Below are positions 2,199 to 46,815 of a stretch of DNA of 64,000 nt, piece after piece. Both the position numbers and the translations under genes were made by a program. Numbering within the stretch: position 1 is the first letter of the stretch; each line of letters starts with the position of its first letter. Under the pieces are notes generated by a model, which was not told the origin of the DNA, did no database searches, and was given only the letters and a program-made list of their open reading frames with translations. The DNA is from a virus: positions 49,161 through 113,160 of the IMG/VR virus record IMGVR_UViG_3300045922_000293; one strand, given 5' to 3'.

Positions 2199-3563
2199 AT
2201 GTCTGGGTATCCTCCCTATAACAAGCGATACCCCCCTTTTGACGGGTATAAGGATCGCAAGACATCCCCGTTAGAATGGGAGGATACGCAGTACCCGTTG
2301 GCCCCGCTCAACGTGAACGTGCAATGGTCGTTTAACTCCACGCTCCCCGCGATGGATCTCTACTGGGACCCGCCGCAGTGGCTGATCTTCAATGGTGTGT
2401 TCCGCATCATGGGCGTGAATATCTACCGTGCTCTCGATTCGGAATATGGGCCTTACTTCAGATTAAATACGGCCCCGTTAGGTTCTACTTTTTACAGGGA
2501 TGAGACGATCAATCAGGACGTGGTAAATGAAGACGTAAGTTCTCAGTTTTTGGTCCGCCGTCCGGATCGATGTGTGTTCAAGGTTCAAAATTATCCCATT
2601 GTGAAAGCACACACCAACAATTTGTTAGCGGATCATCCCCTCGATGTCGCCGTGACCATAGATGGTGTCCCTGTACAGGTGGCTCGTGTCTGGGGTGAGA
2701 CGGGTGAGGTGGAGTTGAGGACGGACATTCTCTATGACAGCTCTTCCAATGAGCGTACTTATCCGATCTTGCCGCGTGAAGATTCAGTTGTAACATGCTC
2801 CTATGCCTATAATGTCAACTTTATAACAAATACACTGAACCAGCGTATCTTTTACCGAATGACAACGGTCGGTGTTGACGAGTTTACGGGGGAGATGCGG
2901 GAGACGCCCTTACATTTAAGTGAAGCCAAATACCATCATCAAATGGAAAATGTGGATTATATTTGGAAGGAGGCGATTCATCGCAATAAATGGATTTTGT
3001 ATCAGGGTGGCGAGCGTGTTAAGGTGTTCATCCGTAAATATGTTGGGCCTAAATGCTCTTGTTATGATCAGACAATAGGCCAGCCGCGTAATAATTGTCC
3101 CGTCTGCTTTGGTACGGGCGTTCGGGGTGGTTATGAAGGTCCCTTTGAGATCTTGATCGCGCCCCCCGAGGCGGAGAAGACGATCCGGCAGACGGAGATC
3201 GGATTGCGCCAGGAGCAACAGTATGAATCATGGACGGGTCCGTCCCCTTTATTGAATCAGCGTGATTTTTTGGTCAAGTTGAATGGGGACCGCTACTCCA
3301 TCGGCGCGACACGTCTTCCCACCAATCGCGGAAATGTCTTGCAGCAACATTTTCAAGTGGGCCTGATTGATAGCCGCGACATCAGACAACAAGTGCCTGT
3401 GACGGGAACCTTACCCTTGGCCTATCCTCAAACGCGCACAAGGGATCATGATGAGGATGAATTGAGCGCCGTCACCTACCCCCAGATGACAGATAAGTGT
3501 AATATTGAGGCTGAGCGTGAGCAGCGCGGTAGAACGCCGACATTTGAAAATATAGTCTATTAG
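2199..3563 (+). CDS. putative virion neck/head-closure protein with FN3-like N-terminus and Cys cluster
   Basis: FN3-like pattern (PLNV..LYWDPP..GVNIYRA..YRMTTV), an inserted beta domain, then CSC-x-CPVCFGTG..GGY; sits among structural genes. Confidence 0.6.
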   Translation: MSGYPPYNKRYPPFDGYKDRKTSPLEWEDTQYPLAPLNVNVQWSFNSTLPAMDLYWDPPQWLIFNGVFRIMGVNIYRALDSEYGPYFRLNTAPLGSTFYRDETINQDVVNEDVSSQFLVRRPDRCVFKVQNYPIVKAHTNNLLADHPLDVAVTIDGVPVQVARVWGETGEVELRTDILYDSSSNERTYPILPREDSVVTCSYAYNVNFITNTLNQRIFYRMTTVGVDEFTGEMRETPLHLSEAKYHHQMENVDYIWKEAIHRNKWILYQGGERVKVFIRKYVGPKCSCYDQTIGQPRNNCPVCFGTGVRGGYEGPFEILIAPPEAEKTIRQTEIGLRQEQQYESWTGPSPLLNQRDFLVKLNGDRYSIGATRLPTNRGNVLQQHFQVGLIDSRDIRQQVPVTGTLPLAYPQTRTRDHDEDELSAVTYPQMTDKCNIEAEREQRGRTPTFENIVY

Positions 3564-4139: not shown

Positions 4140-4617
4140 CAAAAATCAAAACAGAAAGAGGGGTTTAAGTAACCTTGAGAGTAAGATTCAAGTCAGTAAA
4201 AATAAGGCTTTTGAGACTCGTTTGAGAAAGCAATTGCTTCAAGTGTTTAGGTTAGCAATTTTCCAAAGTAGATTTAAGCGCACTCCTAGGCGTTTTCTCA
4301 GGGCTGCGAACATAGAATTCAAAGACAATACAATCTGTGCGTATATAGATGCTGAGGGCGTCACGGCGCAAGATCAAGGAGTGCGTCGCCACTACATGAC
4401 CTATCTTCGTGGAGCGGGCCCGGTGATGATCAAGCAGGGGGTGTTTAGGAAAGCTCCGGCTAAAAACAGCCTCATAGCGGACCAATGGCTTCATAAAGGC
4501 TACAAGGGTAAAAAATTCATGCAACGCGCGCGCGCGCGGATGTTAGAGGTCCTCAAGAAAGAGCTTGCACAACACACCAAAAAAATGCTATTTGGCCGTC
4601 TAAGGGGCCAGAAATAG
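4126..4617 (+). CDS. basic protein, possibly HK97 gp10-like neck/tail-completion protein
   Basis: K/R rich; C-terminal W-x-H-K-G-Y-K-G-K-K-F-M-Q-R-A resembles the HPG..P.F...A end of gp10-like proteins. Confidence 0.45.
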   Translation: MRKYNKNQNRKRGLSNLESKIQVSKNKAFETRLRKQLLQVFRLAIFQSRFKRTPRRFLRAANIEFKDNTICAYIDAEGVTAQDQGVRRHYMTYLRGAGPVMIKQGVFRKAPAKNSLIADQWLHKGYKGKKFMQRARARMLEVLKKELAQHTKKMLFGRLRGQK

Positions 4618-4632
4618 CAATGAAGATCACCT

Positions 4633-5307
4633 ATGAAATTCAGGTTTTTTTTAATTCTGTTCTTAGTGGAGGGATGGATACAGCATAGGATCAACAGGAT
4701 GCAAGGATCTTTTAATGTTACGGTCTTGTGGCGGATTAAAAACAAAACGACTGCCACGTTGCACATGAAAGATTTAGGGGTGACATTAGAATCTGGGGGG
4801 GAATGTGAGATCGTTCAAGATCGCGCTTCATGGTCCCGTGATCTTCAAGACGCGTTGAGGACGGGTCGTGCAGAGCGCGTAGGGATCAGTCATCTTGAAG
4901 ACCCCTCTTCTATGCCGATTCCAACCCCCGCTCTAAAGCGCTCACCCCCTAAATCTTTGCAAAGTCCCCGTGAGATCTCCTTACCCCCCACCGTGGATCC
5001 GACAACGGAGATGGTTGCGGCGCTGAAGGTCAATAATGACCTTTTGACGAAGGTGGTAGACTTGTTATCCCGACCCCAAGCGGTGCCTACTCGTTTTGTG
5101 CCAGATAGTGCCCCAACGTATGCTCAAGATCGCATTCCTTGCCCTCGTGAGGAGGATCATGCGGTGTTTATCCCTAACTTTAAGATCGATGAGTCGAAGA
5201 TCAGCGTTGAGGGGGATATCGCTCGGGAAGAGAGCGCGAACGCGGAAGCATCCAAAGATGCCTCGGCGGCCTTGAAGCGGCTCAAGGCCAAAAATAAAAA
5301 GGCATAA
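4633..5307 (+). CDS. hypothetical protein (small N-terminal beta domain, Pro-rich linker, basic C-terminal helix); start probably near 4699-4726
   Basis: Long ORF directly upstream of the actin-like gene. Confidence 0.65.
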   Translation: MKFRFFLILFLVEGWIQHRINRMQGSFNVTVLWRIKNKTTATLHMKDLGVTLESGGECEIVQDRASWSRDLQDALRTGRAERVGISHLEDPSSMPIPTPALKRSPPKSLQSPREISLPPTVDPTTEMVAALKVNNDLLTKVVDLLSRPQAVPTRFVPDSAPTYAQDRIPCPREEDHAVFIPNFKIDESKISVEGDIAREESANAEASKDASAALKRLKAKNKKA

Positions 5308-5355
5308 GACTCTTTAGGGTATCCCCCGCCTACGCTGAAAGCGTAGGAAAATAGG

Positions 5356-5382
5356 TTGTGTTGTGATGATGCTTGTTATAGA
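5356..5382 (+). promoter_or_regulatory. putative promoter/operator, class TTG-N7-RTGA-N2-STTG-W-WRTA (copy 1)
   Basis: TTGtgttgtgATGAtgCTTGtTATAga; same spacing at 25005, 36384 and 52297. Confidence 0.5.
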
Positions 5383-5538
5383 GTGTTGTCGTGAGGTTCG
5401 CGGGATAGCGATAGCGCAACCTCATACCAAGTCTCCTCCGCTGAGATGCGAAAGAGCGGATATAAACGTGAGGAAAAGGTGCAAACCCCACATGATTGTG
5501 ATATTTCTCCTGCCTCACCACGGTGGGGGGATTATGGA

Positions 5539-6621
5539 ATGGCGGTCAAGCGTAAGCGTGGCCGGCCTAGAAAACACCCACAACAAGAGGAAGGAAGTAG
5601 CATGAATAGTGATAGCATTGAGCTGGTCGAAAATGGCGTGGGTTTGGATATTGGCACAATGAATATTGTGTCTGCCCGCCAACAGGAGGATCGCGTTCTG
5701 TTCCGTAAACAGCGCGACGCATTCTTTGATTTGGATATCACCGCAAAGCCTATGCTGAGGTTGAATAGGGTTCCGTTCATTCAGCAAGATGATCGCTTGA
5801 TCATCCTTGGGGATTCGGCACTTGCCTTTGCCAATGTGTTCAATAGGGAATTGCGTCGCCCCTTATCACAGGGGCTCATCTCGAATACAGATCGTGAGGG
5901 GGCGGAGATTCTTCAAATTCTGATCCAAAACACGATCGGGAAGCCTCAGGGGGATCAAGAAACGTGTTGCTTTAGCGTCCCCGGCAATCCTGTGGATCTG
6001 CCGGGCCGTGATAATGTGTATCATCGCGGGGTGTTCTCCAACATCCTCAAGGGTCTTGGGTATAAACCTATTGCGTCGAATGAGGCCCTTGCGGTCATCT
6101 TCAGCGAGACCGCGCCTGAGATGTTCAGTGGCGTCGCGCTATCCTTCGGCGCTGGCATGGTCAACATCTCCTGCGCCTATCAGACTCAGGCGGTGCAAGC
6201 TCTTCAGTTTGCGGTTGCGCGGTCGGGTGATTATATTGATCAACAATCGGCACAATCCCTAGGCTTAACGGCGGCGAAAATGTGCAAGATCAAAGAGGAT
6301 GGCATTGATCTTCGTAGCCCTTCTACGCAAGAGGAGAGCGCGCTTGCGTTCTATTATCAAGAGGTGATTCGCTATGCCTTGGGTCACATCGTAGATCGCT
6401 ATAAAATGACGGCGGGTCAGAGCATCAGCTTCCCCGAAGCTGTTCCGATGATTCTAAGTGGCGGCACGACACTCGTGAAGGGATTTCACGAGTTGTTCAG
6501 TGCAGAGTTTGAGCGCTGCCGCAAGAAGTTTCCGATCCCAATCAGTGAGATTCGCATGGCGACAGACCCCCTCAATGCCGTCGCTAGTGGACTCTTGATT
6601 CAAGCGCAGCAGGAAGACTGA
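5539..6621 (+). CDS. actin-fold ATPase (volactin/MreB/ParM superfamily), possibly with an N-terminal AT-hook; alternative start 5602
   Basis: Phosphate-1 GLDIGTMNI, connect NEALAV, phosphate-2 SFGAGMVN, adenosine LSGGTT, terminal DPLNAVASG; in-frame MAVKRKRGRPRKH upstream of ATG 5602. Confidence 0.9.
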   Translation: MAVKRKRGRPRKHPQQEEGSSMNSDSIELVENGVGLDIGTMNIVSARQQEDRVLFRKQRDAFFDLDITAKPMLRLNRVPFIQQDDRLIILGDSALAFANVFNRELRRPLSQGLISNTDREGAEILQILIQNTIGKPQGDQETCCFSVPGNPVDLPGRDNVYHRGVFSNILKGLGYKPIASNEALAVIFSETAPEMFSGVALSFGAGMVNISCAYQTQAVQALQFAVARSGDYIDQQSAQSLGLTAAKMCKIKEDGIDLRSPSTQEESALAFYYQEVIRYALGHIVDRYKMTAGQSISFPEAVPMILSGGTTLVKGFHELFSAEFERCRKKFPIPISEIRMATDPLNAVASGLLIQAQQED

Positions 6622-6824
6622 TTAGATACTCAGGGGCAGGACCCTCCTTTCAATGGGGGATTCTAAAAAGAGGTCTGAAAATGCGTGAGAAGGATGGGGT
6701 TGACTCTCCTCTTAGAACGTCCTAAATGAGACTAAAATTGACCGTTAAAGCCCTCGTATGCTTCTCAAAGCTAAGAGGGTTTTAATGAGATCGTCCATGG
6801 TAAACATAGGTTCCATCTCGCGCC

Positions 6825-8627
6825 ATGAATTATCAATATCTCACGACATCCATCAAGCGGAGGATGCTTGAAGACCTGAAGCGGCACTTCAGCTACATCC
6901 CTCAGCACAAAGATATTGTTGAGCACATCCGCTACAAGTACGACTTCAAGGAGAGGCCCCAGAAAGGCATCTTCTTGATGAACGTATCTGCCACCCCCAT
7001 GAAGCTGTCTACAGATAACTACATGGCGGGATTGCATTCTTATGTGATGCTCGGAAAACTTGATCTTGGTACATCACGGCCAAGCGGAATGTTCGTGGAT
7101 TGGGTCAAGGAAGATACGGAATTAATTGAACGTAACAAAGGCATCCCGCCTGCTTTTGCAGGGCAGTACAATCTTGAAATTCAATCCCGCATCGATCCAT
7201 CTACGAAAGAAACGGAATGGGATCTGTATGTGGACCCCATTTACAAGGTGCTTCAGGAGCCTTTGCTCACATTCGTTACGGGCAATGAAACTTCTGCAAA
7301 TCTTCAAAACATCCCTGTCTACCCGAATAGCCCGCGCCTGTATCTCAATGGGCGTACACAACTCCTAAGCGGACCTGTGTTCAGTCTTCAAGCCAATCAA
7401 AGTCTCATCATTCATGATCCCCTCTTTGGTTTACCTCAAGGTCAGATCCGTGTGAGGGCGTTGTCCCCACAGATGGCCCCGTACACTATTGTGGCGGGCG
7501 TGAATGATGTGTTGGCTTTTGAAGTGAACGGCACCCCCGTCACGGTGCTTCTTCCCCCAGGCGTGTATACAGCACAGCAGATGAAACAGGAGATTGACGC
7601 TGCCGCTCATGCGGAGAGTCTGTTTGCACCCGAGTATATCACGAATGTGGTGGGGGATCAGCTTGAGATCACGGGAATCACGTCTGTATTTTTTGAGGAT
7701 CATATCTTTTCCCCCGCCTCCCCCACTCTCGGCTTCCCCTCCGCTAGCTTTATTCCCCCTATTGCGCAGGGGGTGCTTTTCAGGCCCCGTGTATTGGACC
7801 ATCAAAATGTCATGACCTTGATTCTGGACGGTATTGAGTATGCCATCATCTTTGAGCCCGGCATGTATAAAGATGCTGTGGAGATTCGGGATAGGATTCA
7901 AGATCAATTGCCCGTTGGGGTAACCTTAGTGTTACAAGATGGGGGGGAGTACACAGTGGATAACGTGACGGGTGCGGTGACGTTCCATGTGGCGTTTAGC
8001 CCCGGTGATCACGTGATTGCGGATTATTCTTATCACGGGCCCTCCCGCGGGCCTATAGCCGTAAAGAAGAATCAAGAGGTGCGCCATGCCGTGGAAGGCG
8101 CGATGATAGCCCTTGGCGAGTCCTTTGAAGATAAAGATAAGTGTTTCATCTTGATTTTACCCCATCGTGTTCATACCGCGGATTTGTATGGGGGTAAGAC
8201 TGAGATAAGTTTGGATTTTGATATTATCGCCCGTGATCCGATGGATCGTGAGAGCCTTGTTGACATTCTTACGATGTATTTTCATCATTATGAAAATGAG
8301 CGGTTTGCTGAGGAGGGCTTAGGTATTACAAGTGTGAGCGGGGGTGGTGAGAGTGAAGAGGTCTATGATGATGTGGGGGACGATTATTTCTACAAAAGTA
8401 GTGTGAGTGTGTCTCTCCAAAGTGATTGGGAGGTAGCAGTGCCGCGCCCCCTCACCATTGAAAAGATTTTGCCCGTGACGTATGAGCAGGAGGCTTTATT
8501 AGCTGCGCGGGAGCGTGACATTCTCCCTCATGATCAGGTTTTGCGCCCCGTAGTGTCCGTGACTCAAGAAGAGATAAAAGAGAAGGCACGGCGTGGTTTG
8601 ACACCCTTTAAAGAGAGAATCCACTGA
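6825..8627 (+). CDS. putative tail terminator/completion protein with inserted decoration domains
   Basis: C-terminal SLDFDIIARD...SVSVSLQSDW fits tail-completion proteins; internal domains shared with the sheath. Confidence 0.55.
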   Translation: MNYQYLTTSIKRRMLEDLKRHFSYIPQHKDIVEHIRYKYDFKERPQKGIFLMNVSATPMKLSTDNYMAGLHSYVMLGKLDLGTSRPSGMFVDWVKEDTELIERNKGIPPAFAGQYNLEIQSRIDPSTKETEWDLYVDPIYKVLQEPLLTFVTGNETSANLQNIPVYPNSPRLYLNGRTQLLSGPVFSLQANQSLIIHDPLFGLPQGQIRVRALSPQMAPYTIVAGVNDVLAFEVNGTPVTVLLPPGVYTAQQMKQEIDAAAHAESLFAPEYITNVVGDQLEITGITSVFFEDHIFSPASPTLGFPSASFIPPIAQGVLFRPRVLDHQNVMTLILDGIEYAIIFEPGMYKDAVEIRDRIQDQLPVGVTLVLQDGGEYTVDNVTGAVTFHVAFSPGDHVIADYSYHGPSRGPIAVKKNQEVRHAVEGAMIALGESFEDKDKCFILILPHRVHTADLYGGKTEISLDFDIIARDPMDRESLVDILTMYFHHYENERFAEEGLGITSVSGGGESEEVYDDVGDDYFYKSSVSVSLQSDWEVAVPRPLTIEKILPVTYEQEALLAARERDILPHDQVLRPVVSVTQEEIKEKARRGLTPFKERIH

Positions 8628-9133: not shown

Positions 9134-10078
9134 ATGTTTTATCCTATGTATCAAAAGCCTGTGAGCGTGCAGAAGAGCTTATCCGTTATATCTGTAGAGT
9201 CTACCGCGTTTGATGTGCTGGCTAGTGAGGGTCGTATTGCCTCGGAAAGATTAACCTCGCAGATGCTTTATCCTAATATGCCTCTCATCGTGATCTGTGA
9301 GGAGAACGGGCAGAAGCATTCTTTACTGGCCATTGCGCTGAAAGAAGAAGATAAGGAAAAGCGTACAATTACGGTACATAAGGTGTCACATGGCAAAGAC
9401 GGCGGGAGTGTTAACGGGATCAAACCCCGTAATAAAGAGCAGAGCTTGTTATTAGCTCTGCTCCAAATGATGCATGTGCGAGTGCTTGTCGTCACAGGTC
9501 CGGCGGGTACGGGTAAGAGCTTGTGTATTGCAGCGCATGCTTTTGAGGTGATCAGTAAGACCAAAGATATGAAGTTGGTCTTGACGAAGCCCTTAGAGAT
9601 CGTGACGGGGACGCGTTTTTGGGGTACCATGCCCGGAAATGCAGATGAGAAGTTTGAGCCTTTTCTTAAATCTTTTTCAGTTCTCTTTGAGTCCATCTCG
9701 CCAAGGGGTGCGAGTACCCGTGAATATGTGGATGGATTGTTAAAGAGCAAGCGCATCGAATTCTATCCCTTAGAAGTGATGCGCGGGGTGTCTCACCGAA
9801 ATAGTTATGTGTGGTATGATGAAGCGCAAAACATGGATTGTCATGAAATGCTTACATTAGGATCACGCATTGATGATGTGGGACAGAGCCGTCTTGTTTT
9901 ATCAGGTGATTTGTATCAACAGGATCGTCATATCGCCCGTCCTGAAACAGGCTTGCACCACCTTGTGACCTCAAAGCATTTCTTGGAGTCCCCTCACACG
10001 GCACACATGGATCTCAATAAGATTGAGCGGGGCGTCGTGTGTCAGCTATTCCATGATATCTTCAGTGGTCTCGCCTAG
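9134..10078 (+). CDS. phoH: PhoH-family ATPase
   Basis: PRN.EQ, GPAGTGKS, G.MPG...EKF.PF, MRG.S, DEAQN, GD..Q.D. Confidence 0.9.
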   Translation: MFYPMYQKPVSVQKSLSVISVESTAFDVLASEGRIASERLTSQMLYPNMPLIVICEENGQKHSLLAIALKEEDKEKRTITVHKVSHGKDGGSVNGIKPRNKEQSLLLALLQMMHVRVLVVTGPAGTGKSLCIAAHAFEVISKTKDMKLVLTKPLEIVTGTRFWGTMPGNADEKFEPFLKSFSVLFESISPRGASTREYVDGLLKSKRIEFYPLEVMRGVSHRNSYVWYDEAQNMDCHEMLTLGSRIDDVGQSRLVLSGDLYQQDRHIARPETGLHHLVTSKHFLESPHTAHMDLNKIERGVVCQLFHDIFSGLA

Positions 10079-16737: not shown

Positions 16738-18384
16738 ATGAAGATGTCTAAAAAAACGATTGTGTATGGTGATGAGGCTAGGGCGAAGTTAGCAGCAGGT
16801 GTAGATACGATCGCCCAAGCAGTCGGCGTGACATTAGGGCCGCGCGGGCGGCATGTCATGATCGATCGTTTGGGAAATCCGCAAATCACGAAGGACGGAG
16901 TGACTGTAGCTCGTGAGGTAGAGCTCGACACACCTATTAGCCGCCTTGGGGCCCAAATGGCGCGGAACGCTTCCACAGCAACTGTAGCACAGAGCGGGGA
17001 TGGCACGACGACAACGATGATCTTGACACAAGCTATGGTCAAGAATGCGAGGAAGCTCTTGACGGGCAATAGTAGCTTATCCCCTGTTCTGATGCAGAAG
17101 GGCATGATGCGCGCGTCAACCCTCGGGGCGGATTTTTTGAGAAGTATCTCAAGAAAGGTGGAGAGCCCCGAGGAGATCGCCAAGATTGCCTCATTGTCGA
17201 GTAATGGGGATCACCATCTAGGGGCATTGATCGCGCAAGCCTGTGAGACGGCGGGGGAGGAAGGCGTGATCATGGTGGAAGAAGGTAAGGGGATTCAGAC
17301 GGTTTTGGAGTTTGAGGAAGGTTATTGTCTTGATCGCGGCTATTTTGATGTGATTTTTTGTGGGGATCCGTCAAAAACAGAGATTGAACTCGAAGATGCG
17401 TTTATCTTGATTTGTAATAAGAAGCTGACAGATGTCCATGAGAGCAAGCACGTGTTGCAATGGGTGGTCAGCATGGATCGCCCGCTTATCGTGATCGCTC
17501 ATGACTTTGGGGGTGACTTTTTAAAGGCGATGTATCAAAACAGCATCGCCAAAAATATCAATGTGGTGCCTGTTGTCGCCCCCTTATTTGGGGATAAGCG
17601 TGACATTCTTCTTGAGGACCTCGCGGTATTGACAGGCGGGATGGTGATTGATGATATGGCGGGGATCACATTTAAAAGTGTGGAGCCGCAGGATATGATC
17701 GGGATTGCGCATCATGTACGCGTCACGAAGACGCGGACGATCTTGTTTGACTGTACTTCGGATGCAGTCCGCTTAGAACAGCGCATTCGCCATGCTCAAC
17801 ATTTTGCAAGAACAAGCCCCAGCGAGTATGATAAAGAATTTCATCAACGCCGCGGATCTTATCTCGGGGGAGGCATGGCGATCATCCGCGTAGGCGCTCA
17901 GACTGAAGCGGAGATGAAGGCATATAAGGCCCGTGTGGAAGACGCCCTGGCTGCAACGAAGGCTGTGATCAAGGATGGCTTTGTGTTAGGCGGTGGTATG
18001 GCCTATTTAAAGACCTCAGAGTATCTCAAGGGTGTGTATCCCCAGATGAGCTTTGCCACGGAGGATGAGGAGGTTGGCTATCATCTTGTATGTGACGCTC
18101 TTGAAGCACCTCTCGTGAAACTTTTGGAGAATGCGCAGCTCAAGCAGCCTCATCGGATCTTGTATGCCGCGCAAGATTTAGGGTTTGAGGATGGTGCGGT
18201 CTATGACGTAGCACGGGGGGAATGGGTGGATGGGTATAGGGGAGGCATCATTGATCCAACGCTCGTGGTCCTGTCATCCCTGCATAATTCTGTGAGCACG
18301 GCATCCACGCTGATGATGGTGGAGGCCGTGATAGGCATCTCCGATATGGGTGAGTTTTCACCTTTTGGCATTGACCTTGCTTGA
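16738..18384 (+). CDS. groEL: GroEL-like (Cpn60) chaperonin
   Basis: TLGPRGR, TKDGVTVA, GDGTTT, DRGY, KARVEDAL, GIIDP; no GGM tail; no groES neighbour. Confidence 0.95.
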   Translation: MKMSKKTIVYGDEARAKLAAGVDTIAQAVGVTLGPRGRHVMIDRLGNPQITKDGVTVAREVELDTPISRLGAQMARNASTATVAQSGDGTTTTMILTQAMVKNARKLLTGNSSLSPVLMQKGMMRASTLGADFLRSISRKVESPEEIAKIASLSSNGDHHLGALIAQACETAGEEGVIMVEEGKGIQTVLEFEEGYCLDRGYFDVIFCGDPSKTEIELEDAFILICNKKLTDVHESKHVLQWVVSMDRPLIVIAHDFGGDFLKAMYQNSIAKNINVVPVVAPLFGDKRDILLEDLAVLTGGMVIDDMAGITFKSVEPQDMIGIAHHVRVTKTRTILFDCTSDAVRLEQRIRHAQHFARTSPSEYDKEFHQRRGSYLGGGMAIIRVGAQTEAEMKAYKARVEDALAATKAVIKDGFVLGGGMAYLKTSEYLKGVYPQMSFATEDEEVGYHLVCDALEAPLVKLLENAQLKQPHRILYAAQDLGFEDGAVYDVARGEWVDGYRGGIIDPTLVVLSSLHNSVSTASTLMMVEAVIGISDMGEFSPFGIDLA

Positions 18385-18547: not shown

Positions 18548-19687
18548 ATGAGCAAGAGATTGATTATCTCCCATGCTGGGTGTAATGATGGTACATGGGC
18601 CGCGCATGTATGTCTAGCAAAATATCCTGATGCGAAGGTGTATTTTGCATCTTACCATCAAGACCCCCCTGATGTGACGGGTCTTGATGTGATCATGGTG
18701 GATTTTTCATATAAGCGAGCCGTTCTTCTTGATATGAAGGAGAAGGCAAACAGCTTGATTGTGTTGGACCATCATCTATCCGCTCAGGAGGATTTAGAGG
18801 GTCTTGATTTTTGCATCTTTGATCAAGAACATAGCGGCGCGGTCATGGCATGGTTGTATTTGTTCCCAGATCGCCCCGTGCCCGATCTTTTAAAGCGTGT
18901 GGAGGATTATGATCTTTGGCGGTTTCATTTTGAGGATACCAAGCGTGTAGTGCAGGGTATGTATTTGTACGGCAAAGATGATGTACAGCGTGAATTAGAT
19001 ATTGATGCTTTGCTTCAAGGTGTTGGTGACGATCGCCTGACCTTTTATGCAGATGTGGGCTCAGTGCTTGTCAAGTCTTCCAATCATGCGGTGTCGCGAT
19101 TAAAGAGCAAGGCCCATGATCTGAAGATAGGGGGGCATTGGGTCAAGGCTGTCAACACAACAGAATACGTCTCAGAATTAGGGGCCGAATTAGCTGCAAA
19201 GTCGAAATTCGCTGTGATTTGGAGTCTATCAAAGGATTCACAGCACATTCAATTATCTTTCAGATCGGATCGTGATAATCCGGACCATATCAAAGTGAAA
19301 GATATTGCGACATCATTAGGCGGGGGTGGTCATGAATATGCTTCAGGTGCTAAGATGACATTGTCAGAATTCTTGCTGTGTTTGAATCCTTATAGGAATG
19401 CACGTTCAGAGGCTTATAGGGAGATCACGCCGGATGCCGTGCTTGATTTCCTCAAGCATCACGGATGGATTGAGGTAGCTTCAACGGATTATAAGAGGGG
19501 GGAGGTGTATCAGCCTTTGTATAGCGTGTGGGATCTGCCCAAGACTGAATTTCAAGTCTTGGTGCCGCATGATCCTGAAAGGTCTGAATATACGCAGCGT
19601 ATGGCTGAAGTGGTGACACATCTTGCACAGGCACACCGTCGAGAGCGTCATGATATGATGTTCATGTTGATTCGTGGGTATAAGTGA
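18548..19687 (+). CDS. DHH/DHHA1 phosphoesterase (NrnA/NrnB-like) with an extra C-terminal domain
   Basis: H..C.DG, VDFS, LDHH, S.RS, GGGGH..ASG; about 90 extra residues after DHHA1. Confidence 0.85.
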   Translation: MSKRLIISHAGCNDGTWAAHVCLAKYPDAKVYFASYHQDPPDVTGLDVIMVDFSYKRAVLLDMKEKANSLIVLDHHLSAQEDLEGLDFCIFDQEHSGAVMAWLYLFPDRPVPDLLKRVEDYDLWRFHFEDTKRVVQGMYLYGKDDVQRELDIDALLQGVGDDRLTFYADVGSVLVKSSNHAVSRLKSKAHDLKIGGHWVKAVNTTEYVSELGAELAAKSKFAVIWSLSKDSQHIQLSFRSDRDNPDHIKVKDIATSLGGGGHEYASGAKMTLSEFLLCLNPYRNARSEAYREITPDAVLDFLKHHGWIEVASTDYKRGEVYQPLYSVWDLPKTEFQVLVPHDPERSEYTQRMAEVVTHLAQAHRRERHDMMFMLIRGYK

Positions 19688-32642: not shown

Positions 32643-35600
32643 ATGATTCAAAAAGAGCGATTTGAGAAGAGCAAGCTGTTCCGGGGGGAATACGGGGCCT
32701 ATGTGATGACACGCTTCCCCGGTGAGATTCTTCTCAACGGGGTCGATCCCATAGCTCTTGTATTTACGGATAAAGCCCCGCTCACGCACCCACGCGCTGG
32801 CCTGCTAGCCGTAGCGTCTGATGTGATCGTGACCATAGATGGCAATCCCTCCTTGATCTTTGATATCGATCCATTGTTGGGCATCATTTATGTACGCGGT
32901 CATATCTTCGCGGGATCAAGCGTACAAGTTGAATATACGACGACACCTCATATCATTACACCTATCACGGGGATGAATGATCCGAATTATCTTCTGAATC
33001 AATTTAAAAATGATTATGCACATCCATTTACCTATTCAAGTGTCTTAGCCCCTTTTACCCCCCCTCCACAAGCCCTCACACGCGGGCATCGTTATAGGGC
33101 TTTTGAACGGGCTTATTCTTCTTTTACAAATGATCCTACATCTATGGTGTTGAATGAAGACAACAACAAGGCATTTGTCAATGAGGCCCTTGCGAACTTC
33201 ACTCCTCAAGAGATAGGATTTGAATCCGCATCTCAATCCCCACCGCGGGACTTTGAGCATATTGGACCCTCATTAGGGGTGTTCTTACCTCAGGGGGGAT
33301 ATCGTCTTGAGGACCTTCAAAGGTCAGATGACCTTATAGGCGCTGATCCTAACTTCTTTAGGAAGGCTGTGGATCTTCCCGACCAATACAGGGCTTTGGT
33401 CAATGCACGCCTCCGTGTGGATAGCTATACGGCGGAGAATGATTGGACGGGTGCAGCTTTTGGATATGCGGATGGCGGCAGGCTTTATTTTGTAGCTTTT
33501 CTTGATATTTCAGGATTCCGTACTGTGGCGCTTTTACGTTATGCGGGTGATGAATCACGTGCCACAAGTTATAGGGGTATGTCCGCCGTGGTAGAAGATC
33601 GCGGATTAGGGGCTAATCTTCTCGTGTGGCATGGCCCGCCGCCTTTTTTAGAAGGTACAAGACTTCTCTTTGATCATACCATGATTCGAGCGGCTGATGT
33701 GATTATTCAAGATCCTTTACAGCCTTCACAGTTTCTTATTGAGTTAAGTGGCCCACTACCGATGGCCGCATCTTATGATGTCATGATTGAGCAAGATTAT
33801 AGTAAAGATCAAACTTATAGGCTTACACTAGATCAGAATAGGATCGCCCTGTTTAGGTCCGCTTTTCCTTCCCCGTTGATGACTTTGGATCGTGATGAGG
33901 CCGCCGTAGCCCCACAAGTTTACGGCGCACTTGTTCGCCCGCAGGAAGTTTTCTGGGGTGCGTTATCGCGACGTGCAAGCACTGTGATCACGGTTTCTTT
34001 TTTGCGGTATAATTATATCCCTCTTATCACGCAGGACATATCCTTCAGGGAGCAGGTGCGCTATAACGCAGATGTGTTACCTGATCTTGCGGGATTTACC
34101 CCCGCCGTGCGTCATGGCGCGCCTTCATTGATAGGGCATACACTTCATCTACAGACCACGGGTCGTATAGATTCTCAAGGTATTGTGTATGATCGTGATG
34201 AGCCTTTTTTATCAGATCAGACCGCGATTCAGGTGATCTTCAGGGCGCGGGTGCAAAGCATGATCGTAGGGCAGCCCTTTACCCTTGTCTGTGCGGATGG
34301 CGTAAGAGAATTGACCCTCACAATCCTGAACAGTTATGCACAAGATGCGGTGATCAAAGCCGAAGAGACCTTATTGACATCGGGCCTTGAATTTCTACCC
34401 CCGAATCACATTGTGAATGCAGAGGCACTTTTTGAATCCGCTCAACATTTTGCACATGTGCTTTCAGGGGTAACATTTCCTGAAAATGAGGCATGGCAAT
34501 CTAATTTCACCGATCCTTTTCAATTTGAAGATCGAGCTATTCTATTTGATCATAATGGCCTTCAAACGAATCAAATATCGAAATCTGCAAACATTGCATC
34601 AAATCATTGGGTATGTGTTCACAGGATCAGTGTTGTTGAAGGCTACGAGGTCAATTCGTCCAATGCATTCGCTATTCCTGTTTATTGGGGTCTTGAAGAT
34701 GGCACGATTTCAGCGTTTTTGACCTTTACTGACAATGGTACAAAATATGTGGCCGTATGTGATCACAATGGTCAAGTGGTGATCACGACGGGGATGGGAC
34801 GCTTGCAATTTGCGTTCGATTGGCAGACGGATACGTTTTATACCGTAAGGCTCTTGAGAAATGCGGGATTTTTGACCCTGAGCATTGATGGTGCGGTCCT
34901 AGCTGTGATCCCGATCACCGATCTTGCTGCTTCCCCTGGCTCTACCGTGATGACACGCTTGGTCTTGTTACAAGGGCATCGTGTTCTCGTCAAGACGGAA
35001 GGCTTCTTCGCACATAGTACAGATATGAGTGTCACCGATCGCCGTGTAGGTATTTATAGGGGTGGGCATAGACTTTTAGCATCTTCTTACACAACTGCAT
35101 CTGTATCCCCGTCATGGTTTGGTAATTTTGTTGAGTTGAAGGTCTTCCGCGATCCAAAGCAGGATATTGTTCAGGTATTCGCGGATGATGTCTTAATTCT
35201 TGATATGCCTTACACCATGCTTCCGGAACAGACATCTTTAGATCAATTGAGTGTTTCAAATAGGTCTTTTGTGTCTTTTGGGTCGTTTGACGGCAGGTCT
35301 CTTGCAAATGTGAGTTTAGATTATCTTAGGTATGACATCCGATCAAGTTTCACACGAAACCGCACATTACCTCGATCGGCGCTCAATACAGCTCATGTGA
35401 TCACATCCCCTGAACCTTTACAAGATACAGAGGCATCACAGGCGGTCATTGTATCTGATACGAAGTTTCGTGTCAGGATTTCGCAAATCGATCGCAATCC
35501 CATCATCATTATCAGTGTCACATCCCTAGACGGCGGAGTGATGTACCCCTTTGCATGGTCTCTGGGGAATCGTCATATCATGATTTTAGGTGCGGGTTTG

Positions 35601-36302
35601 CCTTCAGATCGGACCCCCGTGATAGTGACATTCTTGGAAGGCCCCGTATGGACAGAAGCCTACCTGAGATCACGACCTGCGAACACACGGCTATTAGGAG
35701 ATACGCCTATTGTCCCACTATCCCAGCAGGCATTGCTTGTACGTAGTACGGAACCTTCCGAGCCCCTTGAGGCCAGCCCCACTACAGACATCACGGATCT
35801 GCTCTTCAACCAATCGCGGGTTTTGACGGATGGTGTCCATACAATCACGTTCAGTATTGTGTCCCCCGGCAATTATCACAGACCTTATTACACGGGTCTT
35901 GAGGTGTATACGGATAGCTGCGGATCAGATGATGTGCCCCTAAGCCCCGCATGTGATCACTTTACACAGATTTCTTTAGATACCCCGTATGAAGACACTT
36001 ATAGGATCCCTCTACAAGGGGATCCTACATTACCTTTCCCTTTCCTTTTGACATCTTCGCTATTAACAGATCAGGGTTTTGTGCTGATGCCGTATGCGCC
36101 TTACCCCATAAGTCTGACCCTAGCGTGGGGTTTGGATGATGCGACGTTACCCCTAGACGATAGATGGTCGGGTGCGTTGGAAGACTTCGCGGGGTCATCC
36201 TTACTGACCTTTGTGGGGTCTACTCTGACCACATCGGGTGCGGGGACGACCGTCTTCACCCTGACCACACCTCCTCTATCTGTGGTGACGCCGCTGTCCT
36301 GA
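32643..36302 (+). CDS. large virion structural protein (baseplate/fibre; beta-sandwich rich)
   Basis: 1,219 aa; N-terminal domain shared with the sheath and neck proteins; lectin/LamG-like segments. Confidence 0.65.
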   Translation: MIQKERFEKSKLFRGEYGAYVMTRFPGEILLNGVDPIALVFTDKAPLTHPRAGLLAVASDVIVTIDGNPSLIFDIDPLLGIIYVRGHIFAGSSVQVEYTTTPHIITPITGMNDPNYLLNQFKNDYAHPFTYSSVLAPFTPPPQALTRGHRYRAFERAYSSFTNDPTSMVLNEDNNKAFVNEALANFTPQEIGFESASQSPPRDFEHIGPSLGVFLPQGGYRLEDLQRSDDLIGADPNFFRKAVDLPDQYRALVNARLRVDSYTAENDWTGAAFGYADGGRLYFVAFLDISGFRTVALLRYAGDESRATSYRGMSAVVEDRGLGANLLVWHGPPPFLEGTRLLFDHTMIRAADVIIQDPLQPSQFLIELSGPLPMAASYDVMIEQDYSKDQTYRLTLDQNRIALFRSAFPSPLMTLDRDEAAVAPQVYGALVRPQEVFWGALSRRASTVITVSFLRYNYIPLITQDISFREQVRYNADVLPDLAGFTPAVRHGAPSLIGHTLHLQTTGRIDSQGIVYDRDEPFLSDQTAIQVIFRARVQSMIVGQPFTLVCADGVRELTLTILNSYAQDAVIKAEETLLTSGLEFLPPNHIVNAEALFESAQHFAHVLSGVTFPENEAWQSNFTDPFQFEDRAILFDHNGLQTNQISKSANIASNHWVCVHRISVVEGYEVNSSNAFAIPVYWGLEDGTISAFLTFTDNGTKYVAVCDHNGQVVITTGMGRLQFAFDWQTDTFYTVRLLRNAGFLTLSIDGAVLAVIPITDLAASPGSTVMTRLVLLQGHRVLVKTEGFFAHSTDMSVTDRRVGIYRGGHRLLASSYTTASVSPSWFGNFVELKVFRDPKQDIVQVFADDVLILDMPYTMLPEQTSLDQLSVSNRSFVSFGSFDGRSLANVSLDYLRYDIRSSFTRNRTLPRSALNTAHVITSPEPLQDTEASQAVIVSDTKFRVRISQIDRNPIIIISVTSLDGGVMYPFAWSLGNRHIMILGAGLPSDRTPVIVTFLEGPVWTEAYLRSRPANTRLLGDTPIVPLSQQALLVRSTEPSEPLEASPTTDITDLLFNQSRVLTDGVHTITFSIVSPGNYHRPYYTGLEVYTDSCGSDDVPLSPACDHFTQISLDTPYEDTYRIPLQGDPTLPFPFLLTSSLLTDQGFVLMPYAPYPISLTLAWGLDDATLPLDDRWSGALEDFAGSSLLTFVGSTLTTSGAGTTVFTLTTPPLSVVTPLS

Positions 36303-36383
36303 TTCGCGAACCTGTAGCGATCGTTGAAGTGCTGAGGGGGTTCGCGGAAACGGAACCATTGGGGCTCTTTAGGGGATTTTATG

Positions 36384-36410
36384 TTGTGTTGTCGTGAGTG
36401 TTGTAGTAGG
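36384..36410 (+). promoter_or_regulatory. copy 3 of the TTG-N7-RTGA-N2-STTG motif
   Basis: TTGtgttgtcGTGAgtGTTGtAGTA; flanks share CTCTTTAGGG and CATACCAAGT with 5310-5432. Confidence 0.45.
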
Positions 36411-36593
36411 GTGGTTAGCGGTCGGACCTTAGTCCTACCACATACCAAGTGCCCCCTAAGAGGATGAGGGCATCCTCCACCTTAAGGTGGAGAATCGGAA
36501 AGACACATCGCTGCTCACGGGTCTGATCTCCTCCTTATGATGGAGGATCGGATAGAAATGATCGGCGCGGACATGAAAAAATGTCTTAATATC

Positions 36594-36638
36594 TTGATCC
36601 TACATAGGCCCCCTTTTGGAGAGCCTATGTAGGATCAA
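36594..36638. repeat. perfect 16-bp inverted repeat, 13-nt loop
   Basis: ttgatcctacataggc ... gcctatgtaggatcaa, 12 nt before ATG 36651. Confidence 0.9.
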
Positions 36639-36650
36639 AAGAAATAGAGA

Positions 36651-37313
36651 ATGGATATGCCCAAGAATATCTTAACGTCTAAGCTCTGCGCTTATGTGGC
36701 GTCGGCACGCAGCGCAATGGGCCTCACTCATTATGACGATGTACCTACCCCCCGTATGCGAGGCGATATTTTTTTCCGCATGATTGATACATCTACTGGT
36801 GAGGTGTTGTGTGATCACGCGATTCGTAACATCATCACGCGCGACATGTCCATTCTTGTGGCTCGATTGCTCAGATCAAATGGAGAGCCTTCACGTGGGT
36901 TGTCTATGCTCGCTGTGGGTACGGGCGATATAGGTTGGAACCCTATGGCCCCTCCCGTAGAGACAAACACGCAGAGATCTCTCTACAATGAGATCGCGCG
37001 TAAGCCCTTTGCGATGACAACTTTTGTGGATGCAGGGGGGAATCCGACGCTTATTCCCACAAATGTGATTGATCTGACTACCACATTCTCCGAAGCGGAG
37101 GCTGTTGGGCCGCTTGTTGAGATGGGATTGTTGGGCGGGGATGCGGACCCGATGAATATTGCATTGACAAATCCAATCCTTCCTCCTAACGGACCTTATG
37201 ATCCGGCTGAGAATGTGGTGGGTAAGGATATGTTGTGTAATTATAAAACATTTCCTGTGATTAACAAGCCCGCCACGGCTACATTGACAATTACTTGGCG
37301 CATTACGACTTAA
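36651..37313 (+). CDS. putative baseplate / tail-collar protein
   Basis: NII...., AVGTG, L.NEIARK, F...EA.G.L.EMGL, F.VINK......WRI pattern of tail-collar/baseplate proteins. Confidence 0.7.
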   Translation: MDMPKNILTSKLCAYVASARSAMGLTHYDDVPTPRMRGDIFFRMIDTSTGEVLCDHAIRNIITRDMSILVARLLRSNGEPSRGLSMLAVGTGDIGWNPMAPPVETNTQRSLYNEIARKPFAMTTFVDAGGNPTLIPTNVIDLTTTFSEAEAVGPLVEMGLLGGDADPMNIALTNPILPPNGPYDPAENVVGKDMLCNYKTFPVINKPATATLTITWRITT

Positions 37314-37325
37314 TGGATTAAGCAC

Positions 37326-39869
37326 ATGGCTGATTACGGACCTCATATTAGCGCCTATCTTGATCCAACAGGGCGTAACTTTGATCTGATCGTGTACCAG
37401 CAAGTCCGCCCGTTGGCGGAATCCGAGCTGAACACGTCTCAAGACGCTTATCAAGATAAATTGCGCAAGATCTTGACGGTGTCTACGCCATCAGGTTTTT
37501 TGACGGGTGACTTTCTTCAACCTGAAGTGTTGGATTATGTGTTTGACCTGACTCCAAACACATTCAGGCTAGTCAACCGCCCTATTGTACATGTCAACGG
37601 GTGGGTGATGCCGATTGAATTTACAGGCACCTCAACATCGGGGGAGAATGTCATTACCTTACCCGCACCCCCGGCGGGGGCTACGGATGTGGGTGCGGAT
37701 TTTGTGTTTCTTGAGGTCTGGCGAGCTTTGGTGAGTCCTACACCAAGCATGATCAATAAGCCTAATGCAAATGAAATCTATCCGAATGGTAATATTCTAG
37801 CGGATGCGGGGACGTATCTACCTGACGATTTAATCAATCCCGTCTTGGCGCTGGAATCTACACGGCGAGTACAGATACAATATCGTATTCGATCCGTGCG
37901 CCTGTCAACGCGACAAGAGAGAATTGGGTACCCCGATTCTAATGTCACTTCACAAGGCCCGCAGGCTGCCCCCGGTGTAGACGCTTATGCCCCCGTAGCT
38001 ACGGATAGTGGTCTTTGGGTCAGTGGTTCAGGTGTAGCGGGGGATTTAGGTACGGTGGACGGGGTGATTTATAGCATCCCAATCGCGATCGTGTTCAGGC
38101 GCAACACGAGCCCATGGGATTATTTGTCAAACGGGAATGGAGGTAGCCTGATCCTGAGTGGTGTGTCAGACAGGCCCGATGGGTATTATGCGGATCAGGT
38201 TGTCTTAGAAGACGTGCTTGATTTACGTCATGCTGTCAGCTTTACGGGCGTATCTCACGAACATGTTTTGAATCATAGCGCCGCTTTGCTCATGGATCAA
38301 AACCTTCGGCAATGGGTGACGGACAGCAATCAGACGGGATGGTATTCGGCGGGCGATCATGTAGGCAATCGTTATTATAAAGGTGATGATCTTGTGCCAT
38401 CCACGCCTGTCACGGACCCACCTAGCGGAAATACGTTCGGATCTGTTGACGGGCTCAGGGAGCGTTATACGGATCGACCCCATATCCAGACACACACAAG
38501 ACGCTTTGGAGCCCCTGTAGGAGGGTGGACTGTGGGGGATGTGATCACATTTGATCTCTTGGCCCTAAGTCCTTTAGGCGCCCCGCTAGCGGATGAGCAG
38601 CCGACAGGGACGGTGATCAGGGATGTCACTAGATTGACGCTTAATGATAGCGCGGCGGGGGTGGGAAGCCCACCGTTCCCTCCTCAAGTCATCTTAGGTT
38701 TGCAGACACAGACGGTCACGATTACTATGGGCACAAGCCCCGTTCCGAATAGTCTTGAAGATCTATGGATTGATTTTGAGCTTGAATACCCTTCGGGGTC
38801 AGGTCTTACAAGTCATGTCACCCAAGAGATGACAAATTTTGATATTCTTGTTCATGCTCCTTCTAATTTAAGCACAGCGATTGGTGTAGCCCTCACGGAT
38901 GATGCTGCGGGCCGAGCACTTGTGCGCAATTATCTCTTTACTGAATATGAGGCCGCGCATCGCGAAGTGGTGTTGTATCATACAACCGATAGCGCCGTGA
39001 CAGATCAGATCCGCGCTACAGATGCCTTGACCCTCCGTTTATCTGAGCCTGTGCATCAAGGGTTAGCTGGTGTGGTCAGTGTGGTGGATAGTTTATTGAC
39101 GCCTCATCTTGTTGCGGGTGTAGATATTCAATCACGCACGATCTTTCTCGACCCGCTTGATCCCCTCCCCTCCCCTGATGATTTAGTGACGGTGACCTAT
39201 TTTCCGCAACGCGCACTCCCCATCACCTCAACGCCTGTGACGTTGTATTATAGGACGGCTGCATTGCAGGCGATTCCAGCGGAATATCTACCTGTCACGC
39301 TGATTGTGAATCCTGTTGCTGTGAGTAAGCAGCTTTATGTCGCGACAGCAAGCTCAGGTTCCGCACTCACGCCTTACCCCTATGAGAGCCCCTCCAATCA
39401 GCTCCCAAATCATGCCCAAGCTTCCTCATGGATCGGTGAGGAGGTGTTGAGATCCCCCGCCCCAATTTCAATCGATGATTTTAGTGTGGATTCCGGTTTC
39501 TTGGAATTGCCCGCCTTGGTGCCTTTTGCACAGGGTGTGTCATGGATTTTTGACAACCCTGTGAATATTACCATTGAGGATCAAGAATTCGTGGACCATT
39601 ATAGGACAGCCCCTTTGTTGAGTTATAAGCCCAGCGCGATCGCACAAGGCTTGAGCGCACATACCCCACACAAGGTATTCGCTTTTGTCCTTGCACACCT
39701 GTTGCAAGATACGCTATTCGCCCGGCGTGGTGAGCTTATCATGCTCGGGATAGCACAGGTGCATCAAGGAAATAAAGAAAATCGCTTGGCCTTATCTGAC
39801 AATACGGCTGATGGCGCTGCCGCTGTATCGATTTACCGTGTGAAGGGTGCTTGGAGGACGAATGCCTAG
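37326..39869 (+). CDS. baseplate/tail structural protein (paralog of 46828-51237)
   Basis: QQ.RPL.ESELN..Q start; D.VFLEVW, RVQIQYRIR, TVDG..Y.IPIA.VFRRN, DG.YADQ....D.LDLR. Confidence 0.7.
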   Translation: MADYGPHISAYLDPTGRNFDLIVYQQVRPLAESELNTSQDAYQDKLRKILTVSTPSGFLTGDFLQPEVLDYVFDLTPNTFRLVNRPIVHVNGWVMPIEFTGTSTSGENVITLPAPPAGATDVGADFVFLEVWRALVSPTPSMINKPNANEIYPNGNILADAGTYLPDDLINPVLALESTRRVQIQYRIRSVRLSTRQERIGYPDSNVTSQGPQAAPGVDAYAPVATDSGLWVSGSGVAGDLGTVDGVIYSIPIAIVFRRNTSPWDYLSNGNGGSLILSGVSDRPDGYYADQVVLEDVLDLRHAVSFTGVSHEHVLNHSAALLMDQNLRQWVTDSNQTGWYSAGDHVGNRYYKGDDLVPSTPVTDPPSGNTFGSVDGLRERYTDRPHIQTHTRRFGAPVGGWTVGDVITFDLLALSPLGAPLADEQPTGTVIRDVTRLTLNDSAAGVGSPPFPPQVILGLQTQTVTITMGTSPVPNSLEDLWIDFELEYPSGSGLTSHVTQEMTNFDILVHAPSNLSTAIGVALTDDAAGRALVRNYLFTEYEAAHREVVLYHTTDSAVTDQIRATDALTLRLSEPVHQGLAGVVSVVDSLLTPHLVAGVDIQSRTIFLDPLDPLPSPDDLVTVTYFPQRALPITSTPVTLYYRTAALQAIPAEYLPVTLIVNPVAVSKQLYVATASSGSALTPYPYESPSNQLPNHAQASSWIGEEVLRSPAPISIDDFSVDSGFLELPALVPFAQGVSWIFDNPVNITIEDQEFVDHYRTAPLLSYKPSAIAQGLSAHTPHKVFAFVLAHLLQDTLFARRGELIMLGIAQVHQGNKENRLALSDNTADGAAAVSIYRVKGAWRTNA

Positions 39870-46199: not shown

Positions 46200-46206
46200 G
46201 GTATCT

Positions 46207-46815
46207 ATGTATTATCTTGTTGAGAACAAGACTCAAACTATTACGGCATCTCTCTTGCCTCATTTAAATGGTGTGCCCGTCGAGGGTCAACGGGTTGTGA
46301 CGATAGATGATCGGGCACCTATTGATGAAGAGAGCCCACCACCTCTTACGTTGAATGGCTTATTGTCTCAGAAATTTGCGGGCCTTCTTGCGTTGAATCC
46401 TCAATATAATCACATTACGTATGACGACTTTGCATCTCAAGCAGTGTGGGACCCCGCCGCGCCTTCAACCATGGCGGCGATTGGGGTGGGCCTTGTGTGG
46501 CTCCCCCCCTTTGCGGGGTTATTACAAACGATCACGATAGCCGCCGCTGTGCCATTTGATCGTGGTGTCTTGACTTGGAACGCGGCGAGGTTTACAAGGG
46601 AATATGAGGATGCCGTCCGTTTGCATCTTTTCTATGAGCCTGTATCCTCCGATACCTTGACCGCCTTTATCTCCAATGATGGGGGGGGTTCTTTTACCCC
46701 CGTTATCAATGGGTTGGAGTTTGTGTTGCCCTCCTTCGGGGATCAAATAGTGGTCAGATTTGAGAATACGAGTACGCAACGCGTGTATATTGAGCCCTTT
46801 GGCGTACTTTATTAA
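46207..46815 (+). CDS. virion structural protein
   Basis: GAGG RBS before ATG 46207; ISNDGG.SF motif. Confidence 0.65.
   Translation: MYYLVENKTQTITASLLPHLNGVPVEGQRVVTIDDRAPIDEESPPPLTLNGLLSQKFAGLLALNPQYNHITYDDFASQAVWDPAAPSTMAAIGVGLVWLPPFAGLLQTITIAAAVPFDRGVLTWNAARFTREYEDAVRLHLFYEPVSSDTLTAFISNDGGGSFTPVINGLEFVLPSFGDQIVVRFENTSTQRVYIEPFGVLY

Follow-up and report, generated by a model that had tools for sequence, protein, structure and literature searches.

A volactin-family actin gene with a conserved upstream partner in the head-to-tail block of a large tailed phage

We report here a volactin-family actin gene, together with a conserved gene directly upstream of it, in a 64,000-nucleotide (nt) stretch of viral DNA. 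The stretch, called the window below and numbered from its first base, comprises bases 49161-113160 of the 113,160-bp IMG/VR record IMGVR_UViG_3300045922_000293, which comes, to judge from its genes, from a large tailed phage. The open reading frame (ORF) in question runs on the plus strand from 5539 or 5602 to 6621, and its sequence identifies it as a full-length actin-fold ATPase of the volactin family, with predicted ATP hydrolysis. A preliminary description, made by a model from the sequence alone, had called it a phage-encoded actin that resembles haloarchaeal volactin and lies in a morphogenesis cluster. Family, phage origin, and location all found support in Pfam, phylogeny, and synteny; the description had missed the partner gene and the bacterial relatives. 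We consider it rather probable that the two genes form the core of a filament-plus-adaptor system, in which the actin would polymerize and the partner would contact the filament. What such a filament might carry, whether DNA or particles, is proposed with far less confidence.

Membership of the volactin family is established. The Pfam profile PF25216 (Volactin) matched the ORF at 228.8 bits (E value of 1.5e-67; cutoff, 35 bits) over profile positions 3-321 of 321, and the same place was found when the whole record was scanned. Among the other actin hidden Markov models (HMMs), MreB_Mbl (PF06723) reached 12.1 bits (E value of 0.088; cutoff, 27 bits) and Actin 10.9 bits, and neither Salactin, StbA/ParM, FtsA, nor HSP70 was listed at an E value of ≤1 in the Pfam scan of the ORF. 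The preference for volactin over MreB, FtsA, and ParM in the preliminary description, which had proposed an HMM search and a phylogeny as the means of checking it, is therefore upheld: the protein falls within the volactin set and far from MreB, and no grouping with ParM or Hsp70-like clades was seen. In a tblastn search, orthologues on megaplasmids of Haloarcula, Halogeometricum, and Natrinema proved 36% identical in an alignment that covers 91% of the query (E value of 5e-64); these haloarchaeal proteins score 437-447 bits on PF25216, versus 229 for the window protein.

The full set of actin-fold motifs claimed earlier was recovered, each one being found in the translation: GLDIGTMNIVSA, GDSALAFANVFNRELRRPLSQG, FSVPGNPVD, YH, NEALAVIFSE, and SFGAGMVN in the first half, and FAVARSGDYID, IKE, ALAFYY, PMILSGGT, and PLNAVASG in the second, an agreement far beyond chance. 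The nucleotide site is intact. Across 65 relatives, the invariant residues include D37, G39, and T40 of phosphate-1, N181-E182-A183 of connect-1, S202, G204, G206, and N209 of phosphate-2, and the adenosine motif G308-G309. From its position in the motif, E182 is probably the equivalent of the catalytic Glu of MreB.

An AlphaFold2 model calculated with 65 homologues has a mean predicted local distance difference test score (pLDDT) of 91.3 and a predicted template modeling score (pTM) of 0.86, with low confidence only in the first ~30 residues. It consists of a four-subdomain actin core alone, and the chain, at 360 amino acids (aa), ends with the core. The best matches among solved structures (Foldseek, VIA-align) are all filament formers: the MamK filament (Z score of 27.9, root mean square deviation of 3.1 Å, 295 residues aligned), BeeR (Z score of 26.8), Caulobacter MreB (Z score of 25.4), and F-actin (Z score of about 25). 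A plain sequence search of the PDB with the actin protein found no relative, and a family profile reached MamK first (E value of 1.6e-4) and then FtsA (E value of 0.01) but no other solved protein, ParM being absent from the profile matches at an E value of ≤10. Alignment to a planctomycete MreB with hhalign gave a probability of 17%. The PHROGs contain no family for the actin, the sole match being a spurious 16-bit primase. In the BFVD library of viral structures the top matches are nucleotide-binding domains of Hsp70, at the level of the fold (TM score of 0.51-0.60). The same library holds G3MAP7, gp506 of the cultivated 499-kb Bacillus phage G, which has an actin fold (Foldseek E value of 5.8e-11, TM score of 0.51) and goes unmentioned in the phage G paper (PMC12484599).

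The second gene of the pair emerged from the loci of the relatives. In 82 of 85 phage-type loci the actin is immediately preceded by an ORF, whose length has a median of 218 aa (a ~210-aa protein) and whose distance from the actin has a median of 6 nt. One BLAST cluster takes in 58 of the 82 upstream ORFs, that of the window included; the remaining 24 gave no match to the partner HMM. Searching with tblastn at an E value of 1e-5 had returned the partner in 0 of 81 loci, and it was recovered by clustering and HMM: the window ORF matched an HMM of 46 other members at 49.5 bits (E value of 3.5e-17). Partner proteins have an N-terminal domain of ~50 residues, a Pro-rich linker, and an FIP motif, and they end in a basic tail, D.A..ALRA.RK, that is conserved; all three conserved segments are present in the window ORF. 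No Pfam or PHROG match and no recognizable DNA-binding domain were found in the partner. By analogy with ParR-type adaptors, its C-terminal tail may bind the filament. Haloarchaeal volactins have a different upstream neighbor, a DUF7139 protein that is unlike the phage partner.

The family is large. A large protein collection yielded 1368 relatives of similar length, and the best 120 of these 1368 all carry PF25216 at 50-67% identity, many of them on contigs of 300-470 kb; an exhaustive library search gave 1038 clusters (50% identity) at an E value of ≤1e-3 and 299 at ≤1e-30. IMG/VR contributed 422 confirmed relatives on contigs of up to 618 kb, and the relatives in GenBank phages include one in LR745208.1 (485 kb, 48% identity). 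Another 448 were found in GTDB genomes, the best of them mostly chromosomal in Planctomycetota at 38-45% identity, along with Omnitrophota and Elusimicrobiota. Haloarchaeal volactin was thus the right family for comparison but not the only close one: bacterial proteins, mainly from Planctomycetota, are just as close.

We inferred a phylogeny of 63 rows, thinned to <80% identity (IQ-TREE quick, LG+C20); MreB was its only outgroup, and placement relative to VolA, ParM, AlpC, and MamK rests on the Pfam and PDB profile results. The branch to MreB is very long. Under the MreB root, Planctomycetota and Omnitrophota are basal, and the tree does not resolve the split among Elusimicrobiota, haloarchaea (support of 100), and a viral clade (Shimodaira-Hasegawa-like approximate likelihood ratio test value of 99). 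The viral clade contains 43 viral rows and four short contigs of metagenome-assembled genomes that show phage synteny, and the window protein is its first and longest branch. That the gene is phage-encoded, as stated at the outset, agrees both with this clade of relatives and with the head, tail, and replication genes of the record. The tree presents the viral clade as an old, separate lineage and not as a collection of genes captured recently from hosts.

The cellular relatives bear on a further explanation, that the phage protein is a host-takeover factor that copolymerizes with, caps, or competes with a host actin (MreB or volactin-like) and so alters cell shape or size or blocks division, making room for very large virions. 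Chromosomal homologues with 38-45% identity occur in Planctomycetota, Omnitrophota, and Elusimicrobiota, where the neighborhoods are envelope related (S41 peptidase, amidase, rhomboid) and the genomes also keep a canonical MreB, and haloarchaeal volactin does affect cell shape (PMC10869688). We nevertheless regard a takeover role as quite improbable, given the age and separateness of the viral clade, the presence of a phage-specific partner, and a position among late-type genes and not in an early takeover region. As a side observation, a gene for a rhomboid protease is at most a few kilobases away from a volactin-type gene in both a planctomycete locus (L072, 3905-4672) and a Natrinema locus (L172, 5729-6966), which may be coincidence. 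On Halogeometricum pHBOR01 (L164, 5992-12966), two known determinants of haloarchaeal shape, rdfA and an archaea-specific gene related to SMC, are found ~3 kb from a volactin orthologue annotated as FtsA.

Inteins interrupt some members of the family: 19 longer homologues are actins split by inteins with homing endonucleases, at no fewer than four insertion points, all of which lie inside the SFGxGMxN loop or directly after the Arg of ARGGD. The inteins, all outside the window, are of the LAGLIDADG or HNH type (homologues P0123-P0141 and P0142-P0283). As a rule, inteins are retained where a protein is indispensable and the site of insertion is conserved.

The actin frame is open without interruption from 5395 to the stop codon at 6619-6621 and contains in-frame ATGs at 5446, 5539, and 5602. 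The preliminary description had begun the gene at 5539, which gives 360 residues. The ORF is real, but the canonical start is rather ATG 5602, because the gene call of the source record (339 aa) begins there and the resulting N-terminal tail of 11 residues is typical of the family; this ATG is preceded by a GAGGAAGG ribosome-binding site. ATG 5539 stands 9 to 10 nt past GGTGGGGGG and would open an optional leader that encodes MAVKRKRGRPRKHP, with the AT-hook core KRKRGRPRK. The match of the leader to the AT-hook profile PF02178 is a weak one (14.1 bits, E value of 0.043), and the pLDDT of the leader region is about 55 in the AlphaFold2 model. The RGRP codons (5560-5575) hold an 8-bp palindrome, GGCCGGCC, and this might be the selected feature, at the level of DNA or RNA, instead of a coding AT-hook.

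Start 5539 may thus add an AT-hook and give a minor, DNA-tethered isoform in this phage; we lean against the long form being made, while holding it to be a serious possibility. Several observations weigh against it. The ribosome-binding site of ATG 5602 is better than that of 5539; the leader is not conserved among relatives and is missing from the called N termini of those with 63-67% identity; the AT-hook score falls under the Pfam cutoff of 17.4 bits; and the N-terminal tails of the family are not systematically basic.

Comparable in-frame leaders, of 45-100 residues and in the same position, do occur in the clade that is closest by path length (L087/L088, L105/L106, and L099), and also in P0012 and P0022. 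They resemble a helix-turn-helix (HTH), with weak matches to HTH_23 (E value of 4e-4) and HTH_11 (E value of 7e-3). The relatives with an HTH leader keep an internal Shine-Dalgarno sequence and ATG, and the long start of L087 is, as in the window, also preceded by a GGGGTGGGATTA-type sequence. In a model of an HTH-bearing homologue, residues 10-45 form three helices (pLDDT of about 80) that lead into a disordered linker; the model is poor overall (pLDDT of 51, five-row alignment), and these residues alone were used. Further afield, HU forms the N-terminal domain of a distant bacterial member (37.7 bits), and 69 proteins of one Atlas cluster, most of them acidobacterial, share this architecture. 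Sampling of the long N-terminal extensions of 20 distant members revealed one HU, one Zn-ribbon, and one BY-kinase fusion and two tandem actins, and most of the extensions contained no recognizable domain; DNA binding thus recurs among volactin-family N termini without being general to them. The fusions in question are those of P0287, P0206, P0187, P0146, and P0149 (HU [Bac_DNA_binding], Zn-ribbon, Wzz/BY-kinase, and tandem double actins), and many further distant members have N-terminal extensions of 100-580 residues without a known domain. A separate idea, that the N-terminal tails of the family are generally basic or DNA-binding, was rejected (median tail, 11 aa; net charge, about 0).

Taken furthest, these leaders suggest a two-gene actin machine, a volactin-type filament with a tail-docking partner, in which the actin gene of this sub-lineage would make two isoforms: abundant plain actin from the internal site, and a rare long form that bears an AT-hook here or an HTH in the closest clade. 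The long form would tether the filament directly to phage DNA, amounting to a one-gene version of the ParM-ParR principle that operates during virion assembly. We regard this elaboration as rather unlikely. The same leaders and the bacterial HU fusion would also be accounted for by partition of the ParMRC kind, with the phage genome maintained as an episome (pseudolysogeny or a carrier state) and the leader or the partner serving as DNA adaptor; ParM and AlpC/AlpA (PMC5539076) are precedents. This reading is nonetheless very improbable: no ParM/StbA family match was found at an E value of ≤1, most members of the clade have no DNA-binding leader, and the gene sits inside the virion module and not beside replication or maintenance genes. 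Nor do centromere-like iterated repeats adjoin it, 5200-6900 holding only short two-copy repeats at chance level.

The placement of the actin in a head-to-tail region, also part of the earlier claim, holds in detail (Table 1). The gene lies between the major head protein, ~14 kb upstream, and the tail sheath; a head maturation protease is likewise encoded upstream, and topoisomerase II, two helicases, and a DNA polymerase are among the further products of the window and the preceding 15 kb. Synteny was counted as the same relative place and strand across 81 viral loci, and the order of the block around the actin is conserved over them, as the synteny check proposed in the preliminary description had called for. 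Among 76 genuinely cellular loci, by comparison, none shares the 454-aa, 600-aa, Zn-ribbon, or sheath neighbors. The 600-aa protein and the sheath have in common a repeated surface-domain module of ~60-80 aa, VND.L.F.VNGTPVTV..PPGVYTA.Q, and phrog_19400 occurs in both.

Table 1. Features of the window, in window coordinates
Feature	Position	Strand	Basis or remark
Conserved 454-aa gene, probable virion or neck protein	2199..3563	+	65/81 viral loci; phrog_1004 ("virion structural protein") matched weakly, at E 1.2e-6
Conserved partner gene, 224-aa ORF, possibly starting at an internal ATG	4633..5307	+	HMM and cluster membership
Promoter-like 27-nt motif GTTGNNTTGTNNTGANNNTTGNNNTAG	5355..5381	+	Spacer between partner and actin
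Optional in-frame leader with AT-hook-like peptide KRKRGRPRKHP	5539..5601	+	ATG 5539 with upstream GGTGGGGGG
Actin-fold ATPase core, volactin family, 339 aa	5602..6621	+	Pfam Volactin, AlphaFold2 model, structural matches, viral clade
Conserved 600-aa gene, probable virion (tail or neck) protein	6825..8627	+	77/81 viral loci
Zinc-ribbon protein, 148 aa	8630..9076	+	Zn_ribbon_8 (E 1.6e-7); 41/81 viral loci
PhoH	9134-10078		Interleaved with tail genes
Giant tail sheath, 2044 aa	10239..16373	+	phrog_2839 (E 2.3e-36) over residues 1690-2040; 72/81 viral loci
Phage GroEL	16738-18384		E 6.5e-118; interleaved with tail genes
DHH phosphoesterase	18548-19687		Interleaved with tail genes

Such a position invites an explanation without filaments, namely, that the protein is an assembly ATPase of the ASKHA type, a chaperone or scaffold for joining neck and tail or for folding the giant sheath. 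The gene keeps a conserved position, flanked by probable neck and tail genes with the sheath 3.6 kb further on, a phage GroEL is encoded nearby, and Hsp70 nucleotide-binding domains head the matches in the viral structure library. Against this, the protein is a four-subdomain actin core with no substrate-binding domain and gave no Hsp70 Pfam match at an E value of ≤1; among solved structures filament formers rank first; the only studied member of the family forms filaments (PMC10869688); and the short conserved C-terminal tail of the partner resembles filament-adaptor designs. On balance we judge the assembly ATPase unlikely and prefer the filament-plus-adaptor reading.

The DNA runs that hold the stretch are labeled as hot-spring and microbial-mat metagenomes. 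CheckV rates the 113,160-bp record as 25% complete, which implies a full genome near 450 kb. No tRNA was found in the window. A search of five related records (four from IMG/VR, of 300-620 kb, and the 485-kb LR745208.1) gave no Tubulin-family match.

Within the window, partner and actin are not coupled: the gap between them is 232 nt to ATG 5539 or 295 nt to ATG 5602. The spacer contains the promoter-like motif GTTGNNTTGTNNTGANNNTTGNNNTAG, of which the 113-kb record has exactly three exact copies, at 5355-5381, 36383-36409, and 52296-52322 of the window, all on the plus strand and intergenic; shuffled controls gave 0.24 expected even at three mismatches, and the reversed control gave 0. The copies precede, respectively, the actin, a gene run that starts at 36651, and a block from 52351 that leads to helicase, DnaB, and polymerase genes. 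On this evidence the motif is a candidate phage promoter with a leader. The sequence in front of the topoisomerase gene, at about 25005, gave no match to the 27-nt pattern, even at three mismatches. No sigma-70-like promoter or intrinsic terminator exceeded shuffled expectation in 4600-7000. Since the motif also precedes the replication-gene block, regulation of the actin may differ from that of the flanking structural genes and follow its own schedule, and with this spacer in front of the gene, the co-regulation with morphogenesis suggested in the preliminary description is not established. Two side observations concern the other copies: those at 5355 and 36383 share ~70 more nt of similar downstream sequence with a hairpin, and the region 32643-51237 holds very large ORFs (1219, 847, 663, 1483, and 1469 aa) that have no PHROG match and are preceded by the second copy.

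In our proposal the phage actin binds and hydrolyzes ATP, and during infection it most likely forms dynamic filaments inside the cell. The upstream partner would hold a cargo or anchor with its small N-terminal domain and bind the filament with its basic C-terminal tail, and the filament may position phage DNA or nascent particles, or organize an assembly zone, in later infection. Because the pair lies in the head-to-tail block and the related genomes show no tubulin, we read it as the likely counterpart, in this lineage, of the PhuZ spindle. Some points count against this proposal. The phosphate-2 loop opens with a Ser, not the usual Asp, throughout the family. No RNA runs were listed as holding the stretch. 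With only ~25% of its own genome in the record, the phage might encode a tubulin elsewhere. Finally, the block also contains non-structural genes (PhoH, GroEL, and a helicase-like ORF), so that position within it is weak evidence for timing, and an assembly factor could just as well be encoded among structural genes.

Among very large phages, the one cytoskeleton that has been studied well is PhuZ, a tubulin. The actins described from phages come, to our knowledge, from a few small temperate elements, of which AlpC is an example. Phage actins, PhuZ cytoskeletons, and the volactin family are thus all known already; what appears to be new is a volactin-type actin in phages and, in the window itself, the AT-hook leader and the uncoupled layout of the pair, with a promoter-like motif of its own. 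The papers searched contain no description of volactin-type actins in phages; among them are the huge-phage survey (PMC7162821), overviews of jumbo phages (PMC7824862, PMC13282480), a paper on phage G (PMC12484599), and those that name volactin. Automatic labels based on Pfam do already tag viral sequences as "Volactin domain-containing."

The closest characterized system is volactin of Haloferax volcanii (VolA, HVO_2015), which forms dynamic filaments and affects cell shape (PMC10869688). VolA and its haloarchaeal orthologues share with the phage actin the full length of PF25216 and the unusual SFGxGMxN loop, and the haloarchaeal genes, like the phage one, are immediately preceded by a conserved gene of the same orientation. 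The phage actin differs in forming its own clade, in having an unrelated-looking partner in place of DUF7139, and in lying in a virion-assembly block and not in a cellular shape context. The actins of Planctomycetota, Omnitrophota, and Elusimicrobiota (273 bits on PF25216) and the haloarchaeal ones are equally close to the phage clade, but the former are cellular housekeeping genes without the phage partner or the virion genes; the MamK-like "saltatorellin" described from Saltatorellota (bioRxiv 10.1101/817700) may be a relative of theirs. MamK and MreB have the same fold at 12-18% identity to the phage actin, and MamK alone, besides FtsA, was reached weakly by profile.

As a functional precedent, the actin AlpC of prophage CGP3 moves viral DNA together with the DNA adaptor AlpA (PMC4446434, PMC5539076). 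The likeness lies in a phage-encoded actin-like protein with an adaptor and a proposed movement of viral DNA. By description, AlpC is set apart as a ParM-like Alp from a small temperate prophage of Corynebacterium glutamicum, with a separate DNA-binding adaptor and alpS sites, whereas the phage actin belongs to the volactin family, lies in the virion module of a ~450-kb phage, and has no adjacent repeat sites; its DNA element, if real, is an in-frame leader. PhuZ of the Chimalliviridae offers a proposed functional analogy, as a cytomotive filament that is conserved in a lineage of very large phages and would position DNA or capsids. It belongs to the tubulin superfamily, however, and not to the actins, and the five related genomes yielded no Tubulin-family gene. 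Nor was any sign of a phage nucleus seen, though no search was directed at one. A family studied so far only in a haloarchaeon is thus apparently a core and strongly conserved gene of widespread large-to-huge phages. If our reading is true, the pairs represent compact two-gene filament systems for study, and the AT-hook, HTH, and HU leaders offer a testable idea of the filament's cargo. Should the proteins polymerize, large phages would have solved intracellular organization at least twice, with actin as well as with tubulin.

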